A DNA stretch of 64,000 nucleotides, from NCBI GenBank assembly GCA_031549495.1, contig JAVBPS010000041.1:9121-73120 (forward strand), in the 5' to 3' direction. This DNA comes from Rikenellaceae bacterium. Its GTDB lineage: Bacteria; Bacteroidota; Bacteroidia; Bacteroidales; Rikenellaceae. The stretch's first letter is position 1. Each line of letters begins with the position of its first letter. Below are positions 5,749 to 35,789 of the stretch, in pieces. Under the pieces are notes generated by a model. That model saw nothing but the letters and a program-made list of their open reading frames with translations. It did no database searches and had not been told where the DNA came from. Position numbers and translations under genes: made by a program.

Positions 5749-5831
5749 GAAAGTTCGGACGGTGGTTTTGCTAATACTTGGGGTGCGCTTCCTTCGGTGA
5801 TCTGGCTCTTTAGACTACCTTTTTATTGCTT

Positions 5832-5915
5832 GTCATTCAGAGCGAAGCGAAGAATCTTGGTCGGAATGGTTCTGTACACAGCCTGACCAGGATTCTTCGC
5901 TTCGCTCTGAATGAC
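5832..5915. repeat. Palindromic intergenic repeat, family copy 1 (31-bp stem with 1 mismatch, 22-nt loop)
   Basis: GTCATTCAGAGCGAAGCGAAGAATCTTGGTC (5832..5862) pairs with GACCAGGATTCTTCGCTTCGCTCTGAATGAC (5885..5915). It shares the core GTCATTC..GAAG(C/T)GAAGAATCT and the loop GGAA..GTTCT.TACACAGCCT with the copy at 20533..20617. Confidence 0.85.
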
Positions 5916-5930
5916 AAATATTCCCCGGGC

Positions 5931-20532: not shown

Positions 20533-20617
20533 GTCATTCGGCAGCGAAGTGAAGAATCTTGGTCGGAACAGTTCTATACACAGCCTGACCAAGATTCTTC
20601 ACTTCGTTCAGAATGAC
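20533..20617. repeat. Palindromic intergenic repeat, family copy 2
   Basis: GTCATTCGGCAGCGAAGTGAAGAATCTTGGTC (20533..20564) pairs with GACCAAGATTCTTCACTTCGTTCAGAATGAC (20587..20617). The inner 20 bp are perfect. It lies 29 nt after the stop at 20504. Confidence 0.85.
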
Positions 20618-22132: not shown

Positions 22133-22164
22133 GTTTAATAGAAAAGAATGAAATTCTTCCTTTT

Positions 22165-22231
22165 GTCATTCTGAACGCAGTGAAGAATCTCAGACAGCCG
22201 TTTTGAGATTCTTCACTGCGTTCAGAATGGC
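22165..22231. repeat. Palindromic intergenic repeat, family copy 3 (28-bp stem with 1 mismatch, 11-nt loop)
   Basis: GTCATTCTGAACGCAGTGAAGAATCTCA (22165..22192) pairs with TGAGATTCTTCACTGCGTTCAGAATGGC (22204..22231). It has the same GTCATTC...GTGAAGAATCT core as copies 1 and 2. Confidence 0.85.
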
Positions 22232-22402
22232 AAAAAAGGTTTATACAAACTAAAGTAGCCGCAATAAATTGCGGGGTTTTAACCCGGTTCTGAAACAATA
22301 AACCACCTTTAAAGGGTATAGATAACGACCGGAAGCCCTGTCCACTCGCCCTGAGGAGACTAAAACCGCAGTACAGGAGTCCGGACGTGCAACGGGCGGG
22401 GT

Positions 22403-26283: not shown

Positions 26284-27444
26284 ATGGACGAGAAACGCCT
26301 CGACGAACTGCTCGGGGAGATAAAGCAACACGGGCTGGACGACCTCTCGGCCGCCGGGCGGCACAGCGCCAACCTCTTCGACGAACTCACGCGCGAAGAG
26401 GAGTTGCCCCGGCGCGTGGCCTCGCATTACGCCGCCGACGCCCGTGACGCGGCAAACGCCTGGGCCCACACCCGCCGGCGCCTCGACGCCGCGCGGCGCG
26501 CCGAAGCCCGCAGGCTCTTCCCGCGGGGCTACCTGATGCGTTACGCGCTGGGCGGGGCCGCCGCCGCACTGGCCTTCGTGGTCCTGGTCACGGCGCTTGT
26601 CTATCGCCCCGAAGCCGCGGCCCCGCACGCCGACGCGACGCGGGCCGGGGCCCCCGATTACAGCCGCATGACCCTGGTGGACGACGCCGGGCGGGTGATC
26701 GAACTGGGCCGGGCGGGCACGGTCGTCATCGACGGGCAAGGCACCGTGGCCGAATGGAAGGACGGGCTGCTCACCTTCCGCGCCGACGCTCCGCAGGCCG
26801 AGAGCTACCGGGTGACGGTGCCCTGCGGGCAGACCATGCGCGTGGCGCTGGCCGACGGCAGCACCGTACGGCTCAACGCCCTGAGCACGTTGCGTTTCCC
26901 GACCGCCTTCGGCGAACAGCGGCGGGTGGAGATCGCCGGCCAGGCCTTTTTCGAGGTGGCCGCCGACGAGCGCCATCCCTTCTTTGTCGAGGCCGGCGGT
27001 ACGGAGGTCCGGGTGACGGGCACGCGCTTCGACGTGATGGCCTATCCCGATGAACGGGCCGTGAACGTCACCCTGGTCGAAGGCCGCGTCGAGGTCAGTA
27101 CCGGGATGTGGCAGGGCGTCCGGCTCGCCCCTTCGGAGCAGGCGAGCTACTCCCCGGCCGACGGCCAGTTGACCTTGCGCAAGGTCAATACACAGGTCTA
27201 CACCGGCTGGACCGAGGGGCTGCTGGTCTTCGAAGACCGCCCGCTCGAGGAGATCATGGCCGCGCTGGCGCGTTACTACGACATCGAACCGGTCTTTGCC
27301 GACCAGGCCGCCCGCAAGGTGCCTTTCGGCTTCAAGCTGCCCCGCACGCCACGCATCGACCCCATCATCGACCTTTTCGGACACATCGCCCAGGTGGAGA
27401 TCACCCGCCGGGGCCGCCAGATAATGATCCGATCCAAACCGTAG
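26284..27444 (+). CDS. FecR-family anti-sigma factor (FecR + DUF4974-type C-terminus)
   Basis: 386 aa. Cytoplasmic N-terminus, TM (YALGGAAAALAFVVLVTALVY), FecR core (GQAFFEVAADERHPFFVEAGGTEVRVTGTRFDV) and C-terminal WTEGLLVFEDRPLEEIMAALARYYDI. Confidence 0.92.
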   Translation: MDEKRLDELLGEIKQHGLDDLSAAGRHSANLFDELTREEELPRRVASHYAADARDAANAWAHTRRRLDAARRAEARRLFPRGYLMRYALGGAAAALAFVVLVTALVYRPEAAAPHADATRAGAPDYSRMTLVDDAGRVIELGRAGTVVIDGQGTVAEWKDGLLTFRADAPQAESYRVTVPCGQTMRVALADGSTVRLNALSTLRFPTAFGEQRRVEIAGQAFFEVAADERHPFFVEAGGTEVRVTGTRFDVMAYPDERAVNVTLVEGRVEVSTGMWQGVRLAPSEQASYSPADGQLTLRKVNTQVYTGWTEGLLVFEDRPLEEIMAALARYYDIEPVFADQAARKVPFGFKLPRTPRIDPIIDLFGHIAQVEITRRGRQIMIRSKP

Positions 27445-27476
27445 TGTGCGTCGCACACCGTAAAAAACCCGAGCCG

Positions 27477-30400
27477 ATGAATGAACATGACCCGAACCTG
27501 AGAAAACGAAAGGCTTTCCGGCTGCCGCGCGCGGCGGTCTGCCTGCTGGGGGCGCTGCTGCTCGGCGCGTCCCTCCATGCCCAACCCACGGTCACGCTGT
27601 CGATGCAGTCCACCGACCTGAAGAGCGTCATCTGGGAGATCGAACGACAGAGCGGCATCCGCTTTATCTACAACGCCCAAGACATCGGGCAGGTAAAGAT
27701 CCCTGCGGTCAGCATGGCCGGAAAAACCGTTCCCCAGGCCCTCGACGAGGTGATGCGGGGCACGGGATTCGGTTACGACCTGCGTGACGGGATCTATGTG
27801 ATCCGCCGGGGTGAACCGACTCCGCCGCCCGCCTCCCCGACCCACCTGACCGTGTCGGGGATCGTCACCGGCGCAGGGTCGGTGCTGCCCGGGGCCACGG
27901 TCACCGTACGCGGCACCACCACCGGGACCGTCACCGACCGCGACGGCCGGTACACCCTCTCCGTCCCCCGCAGCGACACCACCACGCTGGTGGTGAACTA
28001 CATCGGGATGAAGACCGCCAGCGTGCTGGTGCTGAATCGCACCACGCTCGACGTGGTGCTCGACGAAGAGGCCGAGCAGATCGAAACGATCGTCGCCACG
28101 GGATACCGCAGCATCGCGGCCGACTCCTACACCGGGTCGGCCAAAGTGATCTCGTCGGCGCTGATCGGCACGCGCGCCATCGGCTCGGTCGAGGAGGCCC
28201 TGCGCGGCCTCTCGCCCGGCACGCTCGTCGCCGCGTCGGGCCAGCCCGGCGAACAGAACGAAGTGCGCCTGCGGGGGGTAGGCTCGATGAACGCCGACAA
28301 CCAGCCCCTCTATGTGGTCGACGGGGTGGTGTGGGATCAGATCAACATGTCGGGTAACTCGAACACCCCGACCAACCCCCTGAACGCGCTCAACCCCTCG
28401 GACATCGCCAACATCACGGAGCTCAAGGACGCCGCCTCGGCCGCCCTGTACGGCTCGCGCGGGGCCAACGGGGTGATCGTGATCACCACCAAGAGCGGTC
28501 TGGAGAACGAAAAGACCAGCTTCACGCTCGGCCTGCAAACCGGTTTCTCGATGCTCAACACCTATCCCGAGCTGGTCGACGGACGGCAGTTCGCCGAGTT
28601 GTGGACCGAAGGCGAGATGCACGACCTGATCCGGCGGGAGCTGGCCGACAGTGAAGGCAAAACGAGCCGTACGGACCTGGTCAAAGAGCTCCAGTCGCTC
28701 TACGCCGACAAGGACGGCTATACCTACGGACGGCAGAATTACAACTACAACCAGTGGATGAAGGTGGCGCAAGGTAATTTCAACGCCCTGTACGCCATGC
28801 CCGCCGGCGACGGCACCTACCGCCGCTACGACTTTTTCGCCGCCGACGCCGACAAACTCCCCTCGACCGACTGGTTCGAGGAGATCTCGCGCCTGGCGCC
28901 CTTCATAAAGGCCAACCTCTCGATGCAGGGCGGCAGCCGCACGATGCGGTATTACGCCTCGATGGAGTATTTCGACCAGCAGGGGACGATCATCGGCAGC
29001 CAGCTCAAACGTTATTCGGCGCGCATAAAACTCTCCTCCGAATCGGACAAACAGTTGGTCAACTGGGGTACGAACATGTATATTTCGAGTACTCTGCAGT
29101 CGGGGCCCCTGGCCGGCGGGCAGAACTACAACTCGCCCCAGTACGCCGCCGTGATGCTCCCCTCGGTGATCGCGCCCAAACTCGAAGACGGATCATATAA
29201 CTTCTTCTTTCCCAACAACATCCTCAACACGAACCACAATCCCGTGGCGAGCGCCAACGAAAACATCAACGAAAAACCCCTGACGAGCATCACCGCCCAG
29301 GGATGGCTGCAATTCAACCTGCTGCCGTGGCTCAAGTTCCGCTCGACCAACACGATCTATTACACCCTGGTGCGGCGCCACGCCTATTACAGCCGTGAAT
29401 TCGGCACCGGCATCTCGACAAGCGGGCAGCTCTACGAGCGCGATTCGCACAACCGCAAGATCACCTCGACCAACCTCTTTACGGTCAGTAAGACCTGGCG
29501 CGGGCGCCACCGCCTGAACCTGATCGCGGGGGGCGAGATCGAGAACCAGCGCAACACCTACAACGAGATCCAGGTGAGCAACTTCGCCACCGACCGCAAA
29601 CCTTCGGCCTCGATGGGTTCGCAGATGAGCAACTGGAACGGCGGCGGCTACGGCTACTCGCTCGCATCGCTGCTCTCGTCGGCCGATTACTCGTACCGCT
29701 ACCGCTACTTCATCTCGGGGTCGTACCGCATGGACGCCTCCTCGCGCTTCGGCCCCGGTTACCGCACCGGCCACTTCTGGTCGGTGTCCGGGGCGTACAA
29801 GATCGCCAGCGAACCGTGGTTCAAACCCCTTCTGAAGACGATCAACTACCTGCGCTTCAGGGGCAGCTACGGCGTGAACGGCACCCTGCCCAGCCAGTAC
29901 TACTACTGGCGCAACGCGTTCGAGGGGAGCGCCTACATGTCCGTCCCGGGAGCGTCGCAACGCTACCGCCCGCGCCCCGAACTGACCTGGGAGGGCAATC
30001 GCATCTGGAACGTGGGGATGGACGCGCGCTTTCTGGACGACCGCATCAGCCTGACGGTCGAATACTACGACCGCAAATCGAAAGACCTGTTGCAGGACGT
30101 GCGCGTGTCGATGACCTCGGGCTACCAGACCATGCTGATGAACACTTCGGCCGGCATCAACAACCACGGCCTGGAGGCCGAGCTGACCGGCGTGCCCCTG
30201 CGCACGCCCAAGCAGCGGCTGGAGCTGAGCGTCAATCTGGCCACGCTCAAATCGACCTACTACGGCCTGCAGACCCAGGAGTTGGATAATTACAGCCGCC
30301 AGTTGATGGCCAACGGCGAGAGCGTCTACTCGTGGTACCTGCGCCAATGGGCGGGCGTCGACCCCTCGACCGGGTCGGTGCTCTATCCCTACTACGACGA

Positions 30401-30950
30401 GCAGGGCAACCGGCAAACCACCACCAGCACGGCCAACATCCCCTTCGGGATCGTCGGGCAGGGATTGCCGAAAGTCTCCGGGGGCGTGTCGCTCAACTAC
30501 ACCTACGGCTCGTGGTCTCTGAGCGCGCTCTGCTCGTTCGCCTGGGGCCACCAGATCTACGACCGTCTGGGCGGGTCGGTGATCTCCACCGACGGCGGGA
30601 CGCAGTTCTCGGCCTCGGTCGACCAGCTCGACCGCTGGACGCCGGACAATCCCTACGCCTCCTCGCCGCTGAGGGTGAACAACAGCGCGACCGCCTCGCG
30701 CTACACCCGTTTCCTAAAGAACGGCGCCTACCTGAAGGTGCGCAACATCAAGCTGCAGTACGAGGTGCCGCAGAGCGTGCTCAAGGCCGTGAAGATCGCC
30801 TCGGCGGCGGTGTTCGTGCAGACCGAGAATCCGTTCATCTTCTCGCACATTCCGGGCTACGACCCCGAAATGTCAATGTCCGGCTACCGGTATACGGACC
30901 GTTATCCCACTCCCACCATCTTCACGGCGGGCCTTACCCTTAACTTCTGA
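27477..30950 (+). CDS. SusC/RagA-family TonB-dependent receptor with an N-terminal STN signalling domain (trans-envelope signalling type)
   Basis: ORF 27108..30950, but its first 123 codons overlap fecR in another frame. The ATG at 27477 gives MNEHDPNLRKRKAFRLPRAAVCLLGALLLGASLHAQ. STN-like TVTLSMQSTDLKSVIWEIERQSGIRFIYNAQDI...ALDEVMRGTGFGYDL, then CarboxypepD_reg, plug and barrel (C-terminus ...FTAGLTLNF). Confidence 0.93.
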   Translation: MNEHDPNLRKRKAFRLPRAAVCLLGALLLGASLHAQPTVTLSMQSTDLKSVIWEIERQSGIRFIYNAQDIGQVKIPAVSMAGKTVPQALDEVMRGTGFGYDLRDGIYVIRRGEPTPPPASPTHLTVSGIVTGAGSVLPGATVTVRGTTTGTVTDRDGRYTLSVPRSDTTTLVVNYIGMKTASVLVLNRTTLDVVLDEEAEQIETIVATGYRSIAADSYTGSAKVISSALIGTRAIGSVEEALRGLSPGTLVAASGQPGEQNEVRLRGVGSMNADNQPLYVVDGVVWDQINMSGNSNTPTNPLNALNPSDIANITELKDAASAALYGSRGANGVIVITTKSGLENEKTSFTLGLQTGFSMLNTYPELVDGRQFAELWTEGEMHDLIRRELADSEGKTSRTDLVKELQSLYADKDGYTYGRQNYNYNQWMKVAQGNFNALYAMPAGDGTYRRYDFFAADADKLPSTDWFEEISRLAPFIKANLSMQGGSRTMRYYASMEYFDQQGTIIGSQLKRYSARIKLSSESDKQLVNWGTNMYISSTLQSGPLAGGQNYNSPQYAAVMLPSVIAPKLEDGSYNFFFPNNILNTNHNPVASANENINEKPLTSITAQGWLQFNLLPWLKFRSTNTIYYTLVRRHAYYSREFGTGISTSGQLYERDSHNRKITSTNLFTVSKTWRGRHRLNLIAGGEIENQRNTYNEIQVSNFATDRKPSASMGSQMSNWNGGGYGYSLASLLSSADYSYRYRYFISGSYRMDASSRFGPGYRTGHFWSVSGAYKIASEPWFKPLLKTINYLRFRGSYGVNGTLPSQYYYWRNAFEGSAYMSVPGASQRYRPRPELTWEGNRIWNVGMDARFLDDRISLTVEYYDRKSKDLLQDVRVSMTSGYQTMLMNTSAGINNHGLEAELTGVPLRTPKQRLELSVNLATLKSTYYGLQTQELDNYSRQLMANGESVYSWYLRQWAGVDPSTGSVLYPYYDEQGNRQTTTSTANIPFGIVGQGLPKVSGGVSLNYTYGSWSLSALCSFAWGHQIYDRLGGSVISTDGGTQFSASVDQLDRWTPDNPYASSPLRVNNSATASRYTRFLKNGAYLKVRNIKLQYEVPQSVLKAVKIASAAVFVQTENPFIFSHIPGYDPEMSMSGYRYTDRYPTPTIFTAGLTLNF

Positions 30951-30955
30951 CGGCC

Positions 30956-32512
30956 ATGAAAAAGATTTCGATACTGCTCGCGGCACTGACCCTGACCCTC
31001 GGCCTGGGGGGATGCGCAGAGCTGCTCGACAAGGAGCCCTACGAAATGTACGAAGAGGATTTCGTGCTCACCACCCCCGAGGGCATGGACCTGTTGCTCA
31101 CAGGAGCCTACGACCTGGTCGCGGGCCAATCCTATTACGGCGCGCTGCTCTACCTCTACGAGGCGGCCAAGGGGCCCGACTTCTTCGTGCGCAACGTGGC
31201 CGGCGGCTTCTCGTTCTACACCGAGAACCGCTACAGCGAGTCCTCGACCACCAACGGCAACGCCCGCAACGCATGGGTGAACATCTACCTGGTGATCCGC
31301 AACACGACCCTGCTGATCGAAAACATCGACACGGTGAAGGGCGACGTCGAAGAGCTGCGCCGCATCAAGGGCGAAGCCTATGTGCTGCGCGGACTGGCCT
31401 ATTTCGACCTGATGCGCCTGTTCGCCTACCCGCCGGCGTTCTCCGTGCCGGGCGGATCGCGCTACGATGAGAAATTCCAATGGGGCGTGCCGATCATCCG
31501 CACCGTCGAGATGGGTTCCAACATCTACGACTACCGGGTGCGGCGCGAAACGGCCGAGACCACCTATAATTATATCATCGACCAGTTCGAGCGCGCGGTG
31601 CGCCTGCTCGAAGGGCGCACCATCGCCCAGGGCCACGCCAACGCCGCCGCAGCCGAAGCGCTGCTGCTGCGCGCTTACCTCTACCTCGAAAAGTGGGACA
31701 AGGTGATCGAGCTGGGCGAGGAGTGGCTCTCCAAATACGAGTCGCGCTACGCGATGATCCCCTGGGAGAGCTACCCGACCACCTACCACAAGCCGTTCAA
31801 CACCGAGAGCGTGTGGGAGCTCGGCTACATGACGGCCGACAACCTGGGGTCGAACTCGATCAACTACTGGGTGCGCCGGCCGACGTGGAACGAGCCCGGA
31901 TCGGAGCGCGACGGGACCGTCTCGCAGAACATGGGCTACTCGAAGCTGGGCCTCACCTGGGGCGGGACGAACTGCGGTTATAACTTCCTGATCAACTACG
32001 CCAACGACATCCGCCAGTACCTGATCTGCCAGATGGGCATCGAGAGCCATCCCGAATACCTCTCGGTGCGTAAATACGTGGGCGATCCCTACCACTTCGT
32101 GCACAACGTGCCGGTGGTGCGGCTGCCGGAGATCTACCTCAGCCTGGCCGAAGCCTACGCCAATCAAGGCGAGATGGGTACCGCGACCGACTACACCAGC
32201 AAAATATCGCAGCCGCGCCGCAAGTCGGCCGCGAGCATCACTTCGACCGGTAACGTGCTCAACGAGCGTCGGCGCGAATTCATCCTCGAAGGGCATACCT
32301 ACTGGGATTACTTCCGCACGGCGCGCAACCTGACCGGCCGGCAGATCATCGAGAGCATCGACGACAGCTCGATCTCCTTCGGAACCACCACGGGCGCGAG
32401 TTACCGCGCCGTCTACCCGATCCCCCTGGCCGAGATGAACGCCAACCCGGCCATCCGCGACCAGAAGAACCCCGGCTATGCCGACTGGGTCTACGCCATC
32501 GAAGAAGACTAA
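30956..32512 (+). CDS. SusD/RagB-family lipoprotein
   Basis: 518 aa. Lipobox LGLGGC, VLRGLAYFDLMRLFAYPP, RLPEIYLSLAEAYANQG. It lies 5 nt after susC. Confidence 0.92.
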   Translation: MKKISILLAALTLTLGLGGCAELLDKEPYEMYEEDFVLTTPEGMDLLLTGAYDLVAGQSYYGALLYLYEAAKGPDFFVRNVAGGFSFYTENRYSESSTTNGNARNAWVNIYLVIRNTTLLIENIDTVKGDVEELRRIKGEAYVLRGLAYFDLMRLFAYPPAFSVPGGSRYDEKFQWGVPIIRTVEMGSNIYDYRVRRETAETTYNYIIDQFERAVRLLEGRTIAQGHANAAAAEALLLRAYLYLEKWDKVIELGEEWLSKYESRYAMIPWESYPTTYHKPFNTESVWELGYMTADNLGSNSINYWVRRPTWNEPGSERDGTVSQNMGYSKLGLTWGGTNCGYNFLINYANDIRQYLICQMGIESHPEYLSVRKYVGDPYHFVHNVPVVRLPEIYLSLAEAYANQGEMGTATDYTSKISQPRRKSAASITSTGNVLNERRREFILEGHTYWDYFRTARNLTGRQIIESIDDSSISFGTTTGASYRAVYPIPLAEMNANPAIRDQKNPGYADWVYAIEED

Positions 32513-32530
32513 CAAGCAAAAACCACAGGA

Positions 32531-34348
32531 ATGAAAAAGAGAATATTGTGGGCCGCCACACTGCTGCTGGCCGCCGCCCTGACCGATTGCAAGGACGACG
32601 AGGGTGACTTCAACGATACGTTCGCCATCTCGTCCGACGCCGTCCAGTTCGACGGCAACACCCTCGCCTTCGGCCCCGACCGCCTGACGGTGGTGATCGA
32701 GGGGGCCACCGAGACCGCCACCGGCAAGTGGAACGCCATCTGTCCCACCGAGGACGTATGGTGCTCCTTCTCGCGCCGCGGGGGCGAGCTGGCGGTCACC
32801 GTCAGCCTGAACGACACCAATGAGCCGCGCTCGACATGGATCGAGTTTTCGCTCGGGGACAACACCCGCCGCATCGCCGTCAACCAGGAGTACCTGCGCA
32901 CCCTCTCCTTCCCCGGCGGGAACACGGCGACCGAGGGAGCCAACGCCCACGCGGTGTCGATCCCCCTGCAAACGAACGTCGCCGCGGCCAACCTCTCGGC
33001 GAGCGTCACCGATCCGGCCTCGTGCGACTGGATCACCAACCTGGCGGTCAGCGCGACGGCCGTCACGTTCAACCTGCTGCGCAACCCGTCGGCCAGTTCG
33101 ACCCGTCCCGCCACGATCACCGTCCAGGGCGAAGGCAAAACGGCCTCCGTGCGGGTCACCCAGAACGCCCTGAGCGGCTACCCCTACCAGATCGACCTCT
33201 CCGGGGCGGATTTCGCCGATTGCTACATCTACGAGATATGGGATCAGACGCACGACATGAAGATCGGCGAACTCTGCCTGGAATACCTGCATAAAAAGCC
33301 CGACGGGGCCGATAACCCGATCGTGCGCAAACAGGCCACGGTGGCCTATCCGATGAAATCGGGCAAGGTCGACCTGACGAACGGCCTGGTGGTCGACGAC
33401 GGCCATTTCGTGCGGTGGGCCGCCAACGTCACTTCGACCACCCCTCCGGCCGATATGCTCGGCTACGAAGAGGGCGAAACCGTGGCTGCGAAGCCCACGG
33501 TGATCTACCTCGACGAGGGCGCTGCGCGCATGACCACCGTCGACATCGAGGCCCTGCCCGGCGACCGCGTGATGGCCGTCCTGCGGCCCTACAAGCTGCG
33601 CGACCAGCGCTCCGGCACGGCCAATAACCAGGGCCAGCTCACCGAGGATTACTCGTACAAGGTGGTCAAGATCGGCACCCAGTACTGGATGGCCGAGAAC
33701 CTGCGCAGCTCGCGCTACGCCGACACGGGCGCCCCGATCCCGACCGACATCGGCACGGAATGGGCCAACGCCATGTCGCCCGGATGCGCCATCGCCACCC
33801 GGGTCGCAAGTACGCAGGCCAACTGGATCGACGCCAACGACCCCCTGGAGGCTGCCGTAACCGCACGCAATACGCACGGGTTGGTCTATAATTTCCATGC
33901 GCTCACACGGACCACCGCCGCGAAAGACGTGGAGATGCCCGAGGCCAGTATCGTGGACCGGCTCGCACCTGCGGGCTGGAGTGTCCCGGAGCGGGCGCAG
34001 TTCACCCAGATGTGTAACTACGTCTTCCAGGCCACCTCGTTGCCGGGAGCCGCCGATGAGCTTTGCTCCACCACCTACGCGACGGGTGAATGGGCCAATG
34101 CGAGCGGATTCGGCGCGACCGGCAACAACTCGCGGTCGAACTCGGGAACCGCTACGGGTTATAATCCCCATACGGGCTATATGGCGATAGACGCCTACAC
34201 GTTCCGTCCGCCTCCCGGGCAGTTGGGCATTGAGAACCAGCATGTCAGCACGATCTTCCGGATCCAGACCGACACCGACAACAAACCGGTCTGGGTCGCC
34301 AACCAGTCCTGCCAGCGCGCGTTCTACGTCCGCTGCCTGCGCGACTGA
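32531..34348 (+). CDS. Surface lipoprotein with BACON-like repeats and a C-terminal FISUMP (Fibrobacter succinogenes major paralogous) domain
   Basis: 605 aa. Lipobox ALTDC. BACON-like segments (WCSFSRRGGELAVTVSLNDTNEPRSTWIEFSLGD; CDWITNLAVSATAVTFNLLRNPSASSTRPATITVQG). FISUMP-like YKVVKIGTQYWMAENLRSSRYADTG...GLVYNFHA...GWSVPERAQF. Confidence 0.7.
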   Translation: MKKRILWAATLLLAAALTDCKDDEGDFNDTFAISSDAVQFDGNTLAFGPDRLTVVIEGATETATGKWNAICPTEDVWCSFSRRGGELAVTVSLNDTNEPRSTWIEFSLGDNTRRIAVNQEYLRTLSFPGGNTATEGANAHAVSIPLQTNVAAANLSASVTDPASCDWITNLAVSATAVTFNLLRNPSASSTRPATITVQGEGKTASVRVTQNALSGYPYQIDLSGADFADCYIYEIWDQTHDMKIGELCLEYLHKKPDGADNPIVRKQATVAYPMKSGKVDLTNGLVVDDGHFVRWAANVTSTTPPADMLGYEEGETVAAKPTVIYLDEGAARMTTVDIEALPGDRVMAVLRPYKLRDQRSGTANNQGQLTEDYSYKVVKIGTQYWMAENLRSSRYADTGAPIPTDIGTEWANAMSPGCAIATRVASTQANWIDANDPLEAAVTARNTHGLVYNFHALTRTTAAKDVEMPEASIVDRLAPAGWSVPERAQFTQMCNYVFQATSLPGAADELCSTTYATGEWANASGFGATGNNSRSNSGTATGYNPHTGYMAIDAYTFRPPPGQLGIENQHVSTIFRIQTDTDNKPVWVANQSCQRAFYVRCLRD

Positions 34349-34370
34349 CGATCGGCTTCTGCGATGAACC

Positions 34371-34397
34371 AGGCCGGGCGGCGATCCCGCCCGGCCT
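34371..34397 (+). terminator. Strong GC hairpin (11-bp stem AGGCCGGGCGG/CCGCCCGGCCT, loop CGATC) ending the susC-2 operon
   Basis: A perfect stem 23 nt after the stop at 34348, followed by TCCTTTG. Confidence 0.6.
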
Positions 34398-34480
34398 TCC
34401 TTTGACCGCAGGGGAAGGGGTGTTCGCGACCAAAAGCCCGCTCCGACAGCGATGCTTAAGCAAAACCCACGTTACCTTAT

Positions 34481-34954
34481 TAATGCGAATTAAAGGTTGG
34501 AAATAAACGTTCTTTTTGGCCGACGAGCACAGGGCCGGTATCGCCTGCGGGCGACCGTACTTTTTTGCTTGACCAAAAAAGTAGGCAAAAAAGTCAAGGC
34601 GCCGCGCTCCCGGCTTACCCGCTTACGGGTTTTCGGGGAAGTCGTGCGGAAATTCCGCTACGCACAGGCCACATCGCACGCCTCCGCGTTCCGCTCCGGC
34701 CTCCCGCTACAGTTTCCGCCCTTTGTCCCCCGAAAACCCTGGCGGGGCCCAAGCCTCCCGCTTATGGCGCCGGGCCAACGCGCTTTGGCCGCCGCGCAGC
34801 CCACCGCGCCCCCGCCTGCGGCTACCAACGGTCTTCTCGCGTCATGTCGAGCGTTAGTCGAGACATCTCAAACAGAACGGCCGAGCCCGTAGGGGCACCC
34901 CTCGCGGGTGCCCAAAGGAAACCAACGTTTATTTCCAACCCTTAATTCGCATTA
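34481..34954. mobile_element. 474-bp element bounded by 31-bp terminal inverted repeats and flanked by TTAT direct repeats: MITE-like insertion or invertible (phase-variable) segment
   Basis: TAATGCGAATTAAAGGTTGGAAATAAACGTT (34481..34511) versus the reverse complement of 34924..34954 (30/31 identical). TTAT sits at 34477..34480 and 34955..34958. The interior is GC-rich and highly self-complementary, with no credible ORF. Confidence 0.65.
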
Positions 34955-34961
34955 TTATCCT

Positions 34962-35789
34962 ATGAAACGGACATTGCTTGTCGTCATGGCGTTCGCATTC
35001 GCGCTCGCCGCATGCGCCGCCCCGCGCCCGCAGAAAGGGCACCTGGTCATTATCGGCGGCGGGACGATCACCGGGGAGATCCTCGGCAGGATGACCCGTT
35101 ACGCGGGCGGGCCGCGGCAGGCCCGCATCCTGATCGTCCCCTACGCCATGCGCGAGGCGGATTATCTGGAGCGCAACATCAAGGTCTTTCGCGACTACGG
35201 TTGCACGAGCGTGGATTACATCAACGTCGAGCCCGCCGAGGTCGACCGCCCGGAAAACCTCGCCAAACTCGACGGGGTGAACGTCGTCTTTTTCAGCGGC
35301 GGCCAGCAGCGCGAGCTGGCGGATGCCCTGCGCGGCACGCGGTTCCTGGAGCGCATACACGAACTCCACGCCGCGGGAGCCACGATCACCGGGACGAGCG
35401 CCGGGGCGGCCGTGATGAGTAAAGCGATGATCGCCGGCGGCCACCGCCAGGTTCCCCCGGGCAAGGATCCCGCCACATGGGGCGTGATCGCCCGCCAGGA
35501 CGTGAACCTCGTGGAAGGCTTCGGATTCATGCCCGAGGTCATCATCCACCAGCATTTCGTGGTCCGCAAACGGCTCACTTCGCTCTTTTCGGCCCTGCTG
35601 GACCGCCCGGACCTGTCCGGCGTGGGGATCGACGAATCGACCGCGATCGACGTTTCGCCCGACGGGACGTTCGAGGTGGTGGGCGACGGCACGGCGATGG
35701 TGATCCGGCCCCGCCACGGCCCTCTGCACCCGCCCCGGTTCGAGGTGGTGATCCTCTGGAAAAACGACACCTGTAAATACCGGCGATGA
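34962..35789 (+). CDS. Cyanophycinase-like peptidase (MEROPS S51), secreted lipoprotein
   Basis: ORF 34908..35789; the ATG at 34962 gives MKRTLLVVMAFAFALAACAAP (lipobox). GHLVIIGGG...ARILIVPYA...VNVVFFSGGQQ...ITGTSAGAAVMS (nucleophile Ser)...VIIHQHF are typical of cyanophycinase/S51. Confidence 0.85.
   Translation: MKRTLLVVMAFAFALAACAAPRPQKGHLVIIGGGTITGEILGRMTRYAGGPRQARILIVPYAMREADYLERNIKVFRDYGCTSVDYINVEPAEVDRPENLAKLDGVNVVFFSGGQQRELADALRGTRFLERIHELHAAGATITGTSAGAAVMSKAMIAGGHRQVPPGKDPATWGVIARQDVNLVEGFGFMPEVIIHQHFVVRKRLTSLFSALLDRPDLSGVGIDESTAIDVSPDGTFEVVGDGTAMVIRPRHGPLHPPRFEVVILWKNDTCKYRR

Follow-up and report, generated by a model that had tools for sequence, protein, structure and literature searches.

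The closest described analogues of the element analyzed here are MITE700, MITE239, and MITEPgRS (BrickBuilt) of Porphyromonas gingivalis. Like the element, they are small and noncoding, carry terminal inverted repeats, and are present in multiple copies in a member of the Bacteroidales. In MITE700, which measures about 720 bp, subtypes are defined by internal insertions and deletions (PMC2575886). The family of the element also varies by internal insertions; herein, the two are likened by description and not by sequence. The MITEs of P. gingivalis share their repeats with ISPg1 and ISPg3, whereas such a partner was not found for the element in our scans. In addition, the host of the element is an uncultured lineage with a high GC content (62%), unlike P. 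gingivalis.

Correia elements of Neisseria are a looser analogue, with a length of about 100–150 bp and a TA duplication. These MITEs with terminal repeats often lie just upstream of genes, can alter expression, and are reported to invert (PMC10969869). Promoters and an IHF site are documented for Correia elements, whereas no promoter motif was found in the element. The invertible promoters of Bacteroides fragilis resemble the element in another way, as they consist of a few hundred base pairs between inverted repeats of ~20–30 bp and are located in front of surface or uptake genes. Examples include the regions controlled by Mpi, Tsr19, and Tsr0667, which are repeat-sharing families flipped by one trans-acting recombinase (PMC4747536). 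They carry the motif TAnnTTTG and were shown to invert; the element, in contrast, contains no TAnnTTTG. To our knowledge, invertible promoters of B. fragilis are not flanked by target-site duplications.

The window, meaning the whole 64-kb stretch of DNA that was analyzed, belongs to a member of the Bacteroidota and has a GC content of 62%. It contains several SusC/SusD pairs, BACON-domain proteins, FecR anti-sigma factors, and glycoside hydrolases. The element lies in front of a gene for a cyanophycinase-like S51 peptidase, whose homologues are named cyanophycinase by their sources. The closest homologue besides the protein itself is 68% identical, and the lineage is rarely sampled. The spacer between the peptidase gene and the preceding BACON gene measures 613 nt and has two parts, a unique stretch of 128 nt, which contains a hairpin, and then the element. 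The coordinates of all features are compiled in Table 1. As a side observation, the locus at 26284–35789 comprises a FecR anti-sigma factor, a SusC protein with an STN domain, a SusD protein, the BACON/Fib_succ_major protein, and the terminal S51 lipoprotein. Together with the conserved pairing of its last two genes (see below), this gene content gives a hint of a locus devoted to the uptake of cyanophycin or a similar polyamide.

Table 1. Features of the element and its immediate surroundings (positions refer to the window)
Feature	Position	Strand	Remarks
BACON + Fib_succ_major protein gene, last of the SusC/SusD locus	32531..34348	+	domain search
GC-rich hairpin, 11-bp perfect stem, then TCCTTT; terminator-like	34371..34403	+	unique part of the spacer; fails the T-run rule of the scan
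Left putative 4-bp target-site duplication TTAT	34477..34480	.	direct read; same as 34955–34958
Left terminal inverted repeat, 31 bp, 29% GC	34481..34511	+	30/31 versus right arm
Noncoding interior, 412 bp, 65% GC	34512..34923	.	no codon periodicity; no Pfam/Rfam match; homologous to P0122–P0125
10-bp A/T-rich hairpin, loop CTTGAC	34558..34583	.	perfect stem; sole structure with compensatory changes among copies
Perfect 12-mer pair GGGTTTTCGGGG / CCCCGAAAACCC around a region of variable length	34627..34739	.	arms 34627–34638 / 34728–34739
Hairpin GGGCACCC-ctcgc-GGGTGCCC	34893..34913	.	read by eye; paired in the predicted fold
Right terminal inverted repeat, 31 bp	34924..34954	-	pairs with left arm; P0124 homology ends at 34953/34954
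Right putative 4-bp target-site duplication TTAT	34955..34958	.	direct read; absent after the P0124 repeat
Peptidase_S51 (cyanophycinase-like) gene, 275 aa, lipoprotein-type signal peptide	34962..35789	+	PF03575, E 1.5e-19

An earlier note on this DNA had described an element of 474 bp with an interior of 412 bp, 31-bp terminal inverted repeats that are identical at 30 of 31 positions, a direct TTAT on both sides, the inner arm ends AAACGTTC / AAACGTTG, and an insertion 7 nt 5′ of the start of the cyanophycinase gene. This description agrees in every part with the sequence: the right arm and the ATG of the peptidase gene at 34962 are separated by 7 nt. A 30-mer of the arms occurs only twice in the window, namely in the two arms, whereas none is expected by chance (100 shuffles). 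The repeat finder widened the arm pair to 39 nt at 90% (34478–34516 / 34919–34957), and no other long-range inverted repeat of such quality is present in the window. A local dyad, GGAAA-CC-AACGTT-TA-TTTCC, extends across the inner edge of the right arm and, by its sequence, looks like a recombinase site. The earlier note had also likened the inner arm ends to ARACGTWCGT, a putative consensus of the repeats of Mpi-controlled promoters in B. fragilis. After ...TNVYFQPLIRI at the end of the right arm, the window continues with TTATCCTATG, and the empty site after a precise excision would read ...CACGTTACCTTATCCTATGAAACGG....

Further copies of the element, whose search the earlier note had proposed, were found by translating the interior and searching protein collections with it, which detects spurious ORFs called over other copies. 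Four copies were obtained, each on a different NCBI contig and known here from their translations alone: P0122 (167 aa, contig of 6,310 nt, E 4.9e-27), P0123 (183 aa, 17,631 nt, E 6.3e-17), P0124 (213 aa, 8,976 nt, E 2.9e-21), and P0125 (83 aa, 8,800 nt, E 8.4e-6). According to a codon-aware alignment of these translations, the DNA identity of the copies is at most 90–94% over 216 to 411 aligned nucleotides. P0123 tiles the window at 34517–34935 by using all three frames, and changes of frame relative to the window also occur in P0124 and P0125. Hence, the similarity is one of DNA sequences and not of proteins. Conserved blocks are located at about 34585–34645, 34705–34745, and 34817–34920, and the other copies contain insertions of 39 to 99 nt around 34647–34659, 34752–34757, and 34802. 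These internal insertions, whose extra segments are partly common to P0122 and P0124, suggest that the family is divided into subfamilies. The "hypothetical proteins" of 83 to 213 aa that were called from these copies in public assemblies are annotation artifacts.

The outer end of the element can be read in P0124, which runs through the right arm (...TNAYFQPLIRI, compared with ...TNVYFQPLIRI in the window). Its homology stops at 34953/34954, where the right repeat has its outer end; the sequence beyond is unrelated, with differences forced at 34955, 34958, and 34961. Since TTAT does not follow the repeat in P0124, it belongs to the flank and not to the element, which fits a target-site duplication. 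The TTAT match can be read at one copy only, and a 4-bp match is expected by chance in about 1 of 100–250 cases in A/T-rich sequence. The outer termini of P0123 are unlike the repeats of the window.

No cyanophycinase homologue with an identity between 68% and 100% was found in 5.8 billion protein clusters; hence, P0122–P0125 are not orthologous loci. The four copies probably stem from the same assembly as the window. In contrast to the translated search, DNA scans with the terminal repeat gave no further copies: an exact 25-mer had no match in GTDB genomes or in viral contigs and an exact 22-mer none in JGI metagenomes. A conserved 20-mer of the interior had no match in viral contigs, and protein-pattern scans based on the alignment of the translated interior gave none in genomes and metagenomes. 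BLASTN of the whole element yielded nothing against plasmids and phages, and a second copy was not found in the rest of the window.

Near-perfect terminal repeats, a 4-bp direct repeat, a small noncoding size, and at least five copies together make up the signature of a MITE. The same applies to the unrelated flank at the right end of P0124, the insertion subfamilies, and the absence of the element at the syntenic site of a relative (see below). It is therefore likely, as judged from sequence comparison, that the element is a copy of a MITE-like dispersed repeat. The first of two readings offered in the earlier note, a non-autonomous transposable element, is thus the one that is borne out, by the four additional copies, the end of homology at the repeat, TTAT as a part of the flank, and the relative that lacks the spacer.

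A dispersed repeat could also have arisen without a transposase that binds the terminal repeats, for example, as an end left behind by a larger integrative element or by spreading through recombination, in which case TTAT would be a coincidence. An autonomous element with the same terminal repeats, or a cognate transposase, was not found in the window (ORFs of at least 200 aa) or in the scans of GTDB genomes, JGI metagenomes, and viral contigs. This absence would fit such an origin, as would the single readable pair of direct repeats and the deviating outer termini of P0123. The window also contains a second, unrelated family of repeats, which speaks for a genome rich in intergenic repeats and points in the same direction. 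The 31-bp repeats, the sharp end of the homology in P0124, TTAT, and the small noncoding size are, in contrast, the standard signature of a MITE, and an origin without such a transposase is regarded as improbable.

The second family consists of palindromic hairpins with the arm consensus GTCATTCNGARCGNAGNGAAGAATCT, which are located at three intergenic sites (5830–5917, 20545–20617, and 22161–22235). The palindromes are perfect or near-perfect and resemble REP-type elements or terminators; five arms were found, compared with an expectation of 0 by chance. One part of the interior of the element, GTCATGTCGAGCGTTAGTCGAGACATCT at 34842–34870, bears a loose likeness to one arm of this family; it differs by more than three mismatches, and the likeness may be a coincidence.

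The interior of the element has a GC content of 65–68%, compared with 36–52% in those intergenic regions of the window that contain no suspected gene. Its sole A/T-rich stretch (34558–34600) is located near the left end. Two ORFs, 34497..34892 and 34565..34945, are present over the interior, and the Pfam search gave no match for either. Between codon phases, the GC content differs by 0.07 in the interior, whereas the neighboring genes show a mean difference of 0.41 and a minimum of 0.23. Considered as a candidate, a real small protein is ruled out by the flat codon phases, the lack of a Pfam match, and the frame shifts among the copies. The judgment of the earlier note that the interior holds no plausible ORF is in line with these values.

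The same architecture may be read as an invertible promoter, which was the second reading of the earlier note. A recombinase encoded elsewhere would then flip the 412-bp interior and toggle the cyanophycinase-like gene. The length of the repeats (31–39 bp) and their spacing of ~400 bp lie within the described ranges of invertons (PMC11892184), and repeat-sharing families of invertons are known in B. fragilis (PMC4747536). The position directly 5′ of a gene in a surface/uptake locus of the Bacteroidota and the local dyad GGAAA-CC-AACGTT-TA-TTTCC at the inner edge of the right arm are consistent with this reading as well. Once flipped, the A/T-rich stretch 34558–34600 would sit ~100 nt upstream of the ATG.

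The promoter motif itself argues against inversion. The genome uses TAnnTTTG, the −7 motif of Bacteroidetes promoters: 13 matches are present in the window outside the element, several of them in intergenic regions, whereas no exact match is found on either strand of the element or within the unique stretch of the spacer. Matches within the element contain one mismatch, and none of them is accompanied by a −33 box (TTTG). Moreover, the interior is GC-rich and conserved among the copies from end to end, which goes beyond any promoter block. Two copies deviate from the ACGT core in their right arms: P0123 has a change from G to A at 34927, and P0124 has one from T to C at 34928. The flanking TTAT and the end of the P0124 homology at the outer edge of the right repeat, which is the sole end that can be read, also speak against an inverton. 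No recombinase or transposase domain is present in the ORFs of at least 200 aa in the 64-kb window, so that the statement of the earlier note that no recombinase is encoded here holds.

Evidence on the orientation of the segment comes from a single Logan contig, L001 (SRR23967709), which is the sole other public contig of the locus and is 100% identical to the window over 1,706 nt. Its position 1 corresponds to position 34927 of the window, which lies inside the right repeat and 28 nt from the outer end of the element. A contig break inside the repeat could be taken as a sign of inversion. The branch expected in a k-mer graph for a simple inversion is located at 34924, however, and not at 34927. 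The Logan assembler uses k = 31, and the break would fit such an assembler meeting a multi-copy repeat; a coverage gap may also explain it. Sequence in the opposite orientation was not found in any collection searched. An inverton is thus an unlikely explanation, and the element is probably not a phase-variation switch. The second reading of the earlier note is not upheld, given the missing TAnnTTTG, the GC-rich interior, the variation of the ACGT core, and the lack of an invertase in the window.

The interior is rich in local complementarity. The earlier note had pointed out the perfect hairpin at 34558–34583, the long-range 12-mer pair, and the hairpin at 34893–34913; the first two were confirmed, and the third is visible by eye and paired in the predicted fold. 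The arms of the first hairpin, TACTTTTTTG/CAAAAAAGTA, pair perfectly. At 34566/34575, the window has a T-A pair, which is replaced by C-G in both P0122 and P0123 and by G-C in P0125; at 34567/34574, the G-C pair of the window is replaced by C-G in P0122. An alternative pairing of this hairpin with 34586–34595 is not kept in the other copies. Both halves of the 12-mer pair are retained in most copies, with one pair broken in P0124 and no covariation. The hairpin at 34893–34913 is unchanged in P0123 and P0124 and is not accompanied by a T-run on either strand. A long palindrome or foldback element was considered separately and rejected, as the self-complement score is 18 compared with 15.9 ± 2.8 in shuffles.

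These structures raise the question of whether the element is a gene for a structured noncoding RNA or acts in cis as a regulatory leader of the peptidase gene, with the long-range complementarity reflecting the folding of an RNA. The interior folds better than shuffled sequences (z = −2.8 on the plus strand and −3.0 on the minus strand), its conserved blocks include both halves of the 12-mer pair, and one hairpin shows compensatory changes. The folding scores are, however, equal on both strands, and Rfam gives nothing in the element at E values up to 1 and nothing in the window at the gathering score. When the predicted fold is compared with the base changes forced by the translations of the copies, 37 pair-cells are broken and 4 are compensatory, all 4 within the single local hairpin at 34558–34583. 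Template switching is another possible source of compensatory changes in a short palindrome. In addition, insertions of 39–99 nt are tolerated in other copies, and the copies adjoin unrelated flanks, so that they lead no single gene family. An RNA gene or leader is therefore highly unlikely. The earlier note had named a structured RNA with covarying pairs as an outcome that would speak against its own readings; of this, the compensation is seen in one local hairpin, whereas the long-range fold is contradicted. A global RNA structure of the interior is, on the basis of these comparisons, not supported. The hairpin at 34558–34583 is maintained, be it by selection or by template switching inside the palindrome, and may serve the element as a module for binding or structure.

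The surroundings of the peptidase gene were compared with those of its homologues. In L002/L003, a syntenic relative with low GC content, the peptidase orthologue follows 13 nt after the orthologue of the BACON gene. The latter, in L002, is 45% identical across 449 residues and likewise ends in ...RCLRD. L002/L003 is the only syntenic relative found; with a peptidase identity of 68%, it lacks the whole 613-nt spacer and not just the element. A 61%-identical peptidase homologue (L004, L005) is preceded by an unrelated gene. Given the 13-nt gap in L002 and the unrelated upstream gene in L004 and L005, the long spacer is specific to the source lineage, and L002/L003 is too distant to provide a clean empty site. 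When the neighboring proteins were looked up as exact sequences to find other strains or empty sites, no match was obtained. Two side observations belong here. In the 68%-identical relative, the BACON protein is likewise paired with the S51 peptidase (L002 204–3132). The terminator-like hairpin at 34371–34403 lies just past the end of the BACON coding sequence and is missing from this relative; this hairpin together with the element suggests that the peptidase gene has become uncoupled from the operon.

As a MITE-like repeat, the element would be a 474-bp noncoding, non-autonomous DNA transposon with 31-bp A/T-rich terminal inverted repeats at its ends. A transposase provided by a cognate insertion sequence elsewhere in the genome would bind both terminal repeats, excise or copy the element, insert it at an A/T-rich site, and thereby duplicate 4 bp. 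The copy described here lies between the last gene of the SusC/SusD locus and the S51 peptidase gene, two genes that are 13 nt apart in L002/L003. The peptidase gene would thus be located 613 nt from the operon with which it was probably co-transcribed. Since the 613-nt spacer contains no recognizable Bacteroidetes promoter, the peptidase is probably expressed by read-through across the element, whose A/T-rich right repeat would form the immediate leader of the gene.

Both readings of the earlier note might also be combined in a mobile switch, in which the MITE repeats with their AACGTT-centered dyad double as sites for a trans-acting recombinase. There is no positive evidence for such a switch, and on these sequences it is very unlikely. 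If true, each insertion beside a gene would give rise to another invertible element, by which read-through or transcription is modulated. The compensating hairpin would then be its functional module, and transposition would spread phase-variable control to new loci in this lineage of the Bacteroidota. The element is most likely an ordinary kind of bacterial repeat, and a new biological question would arise only if inversion were shown.

For annotation, the MITE-like reading means that ORFs called over the element are spurious and that expression of the peptidase gene may be poor. Caution is called for as well, as screens for invertons that are based on inverted repeats will also catch MITEs beside gene starts. 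If the reading is true, the element represents an uncharacterized MITE family in a rarely sampled, high-GC lineage of the Bacteroidota, one insertion of which parts a cyanophycinase-like peptidase gene from the polysaccharide-utilization-type operon that was probably its former home.
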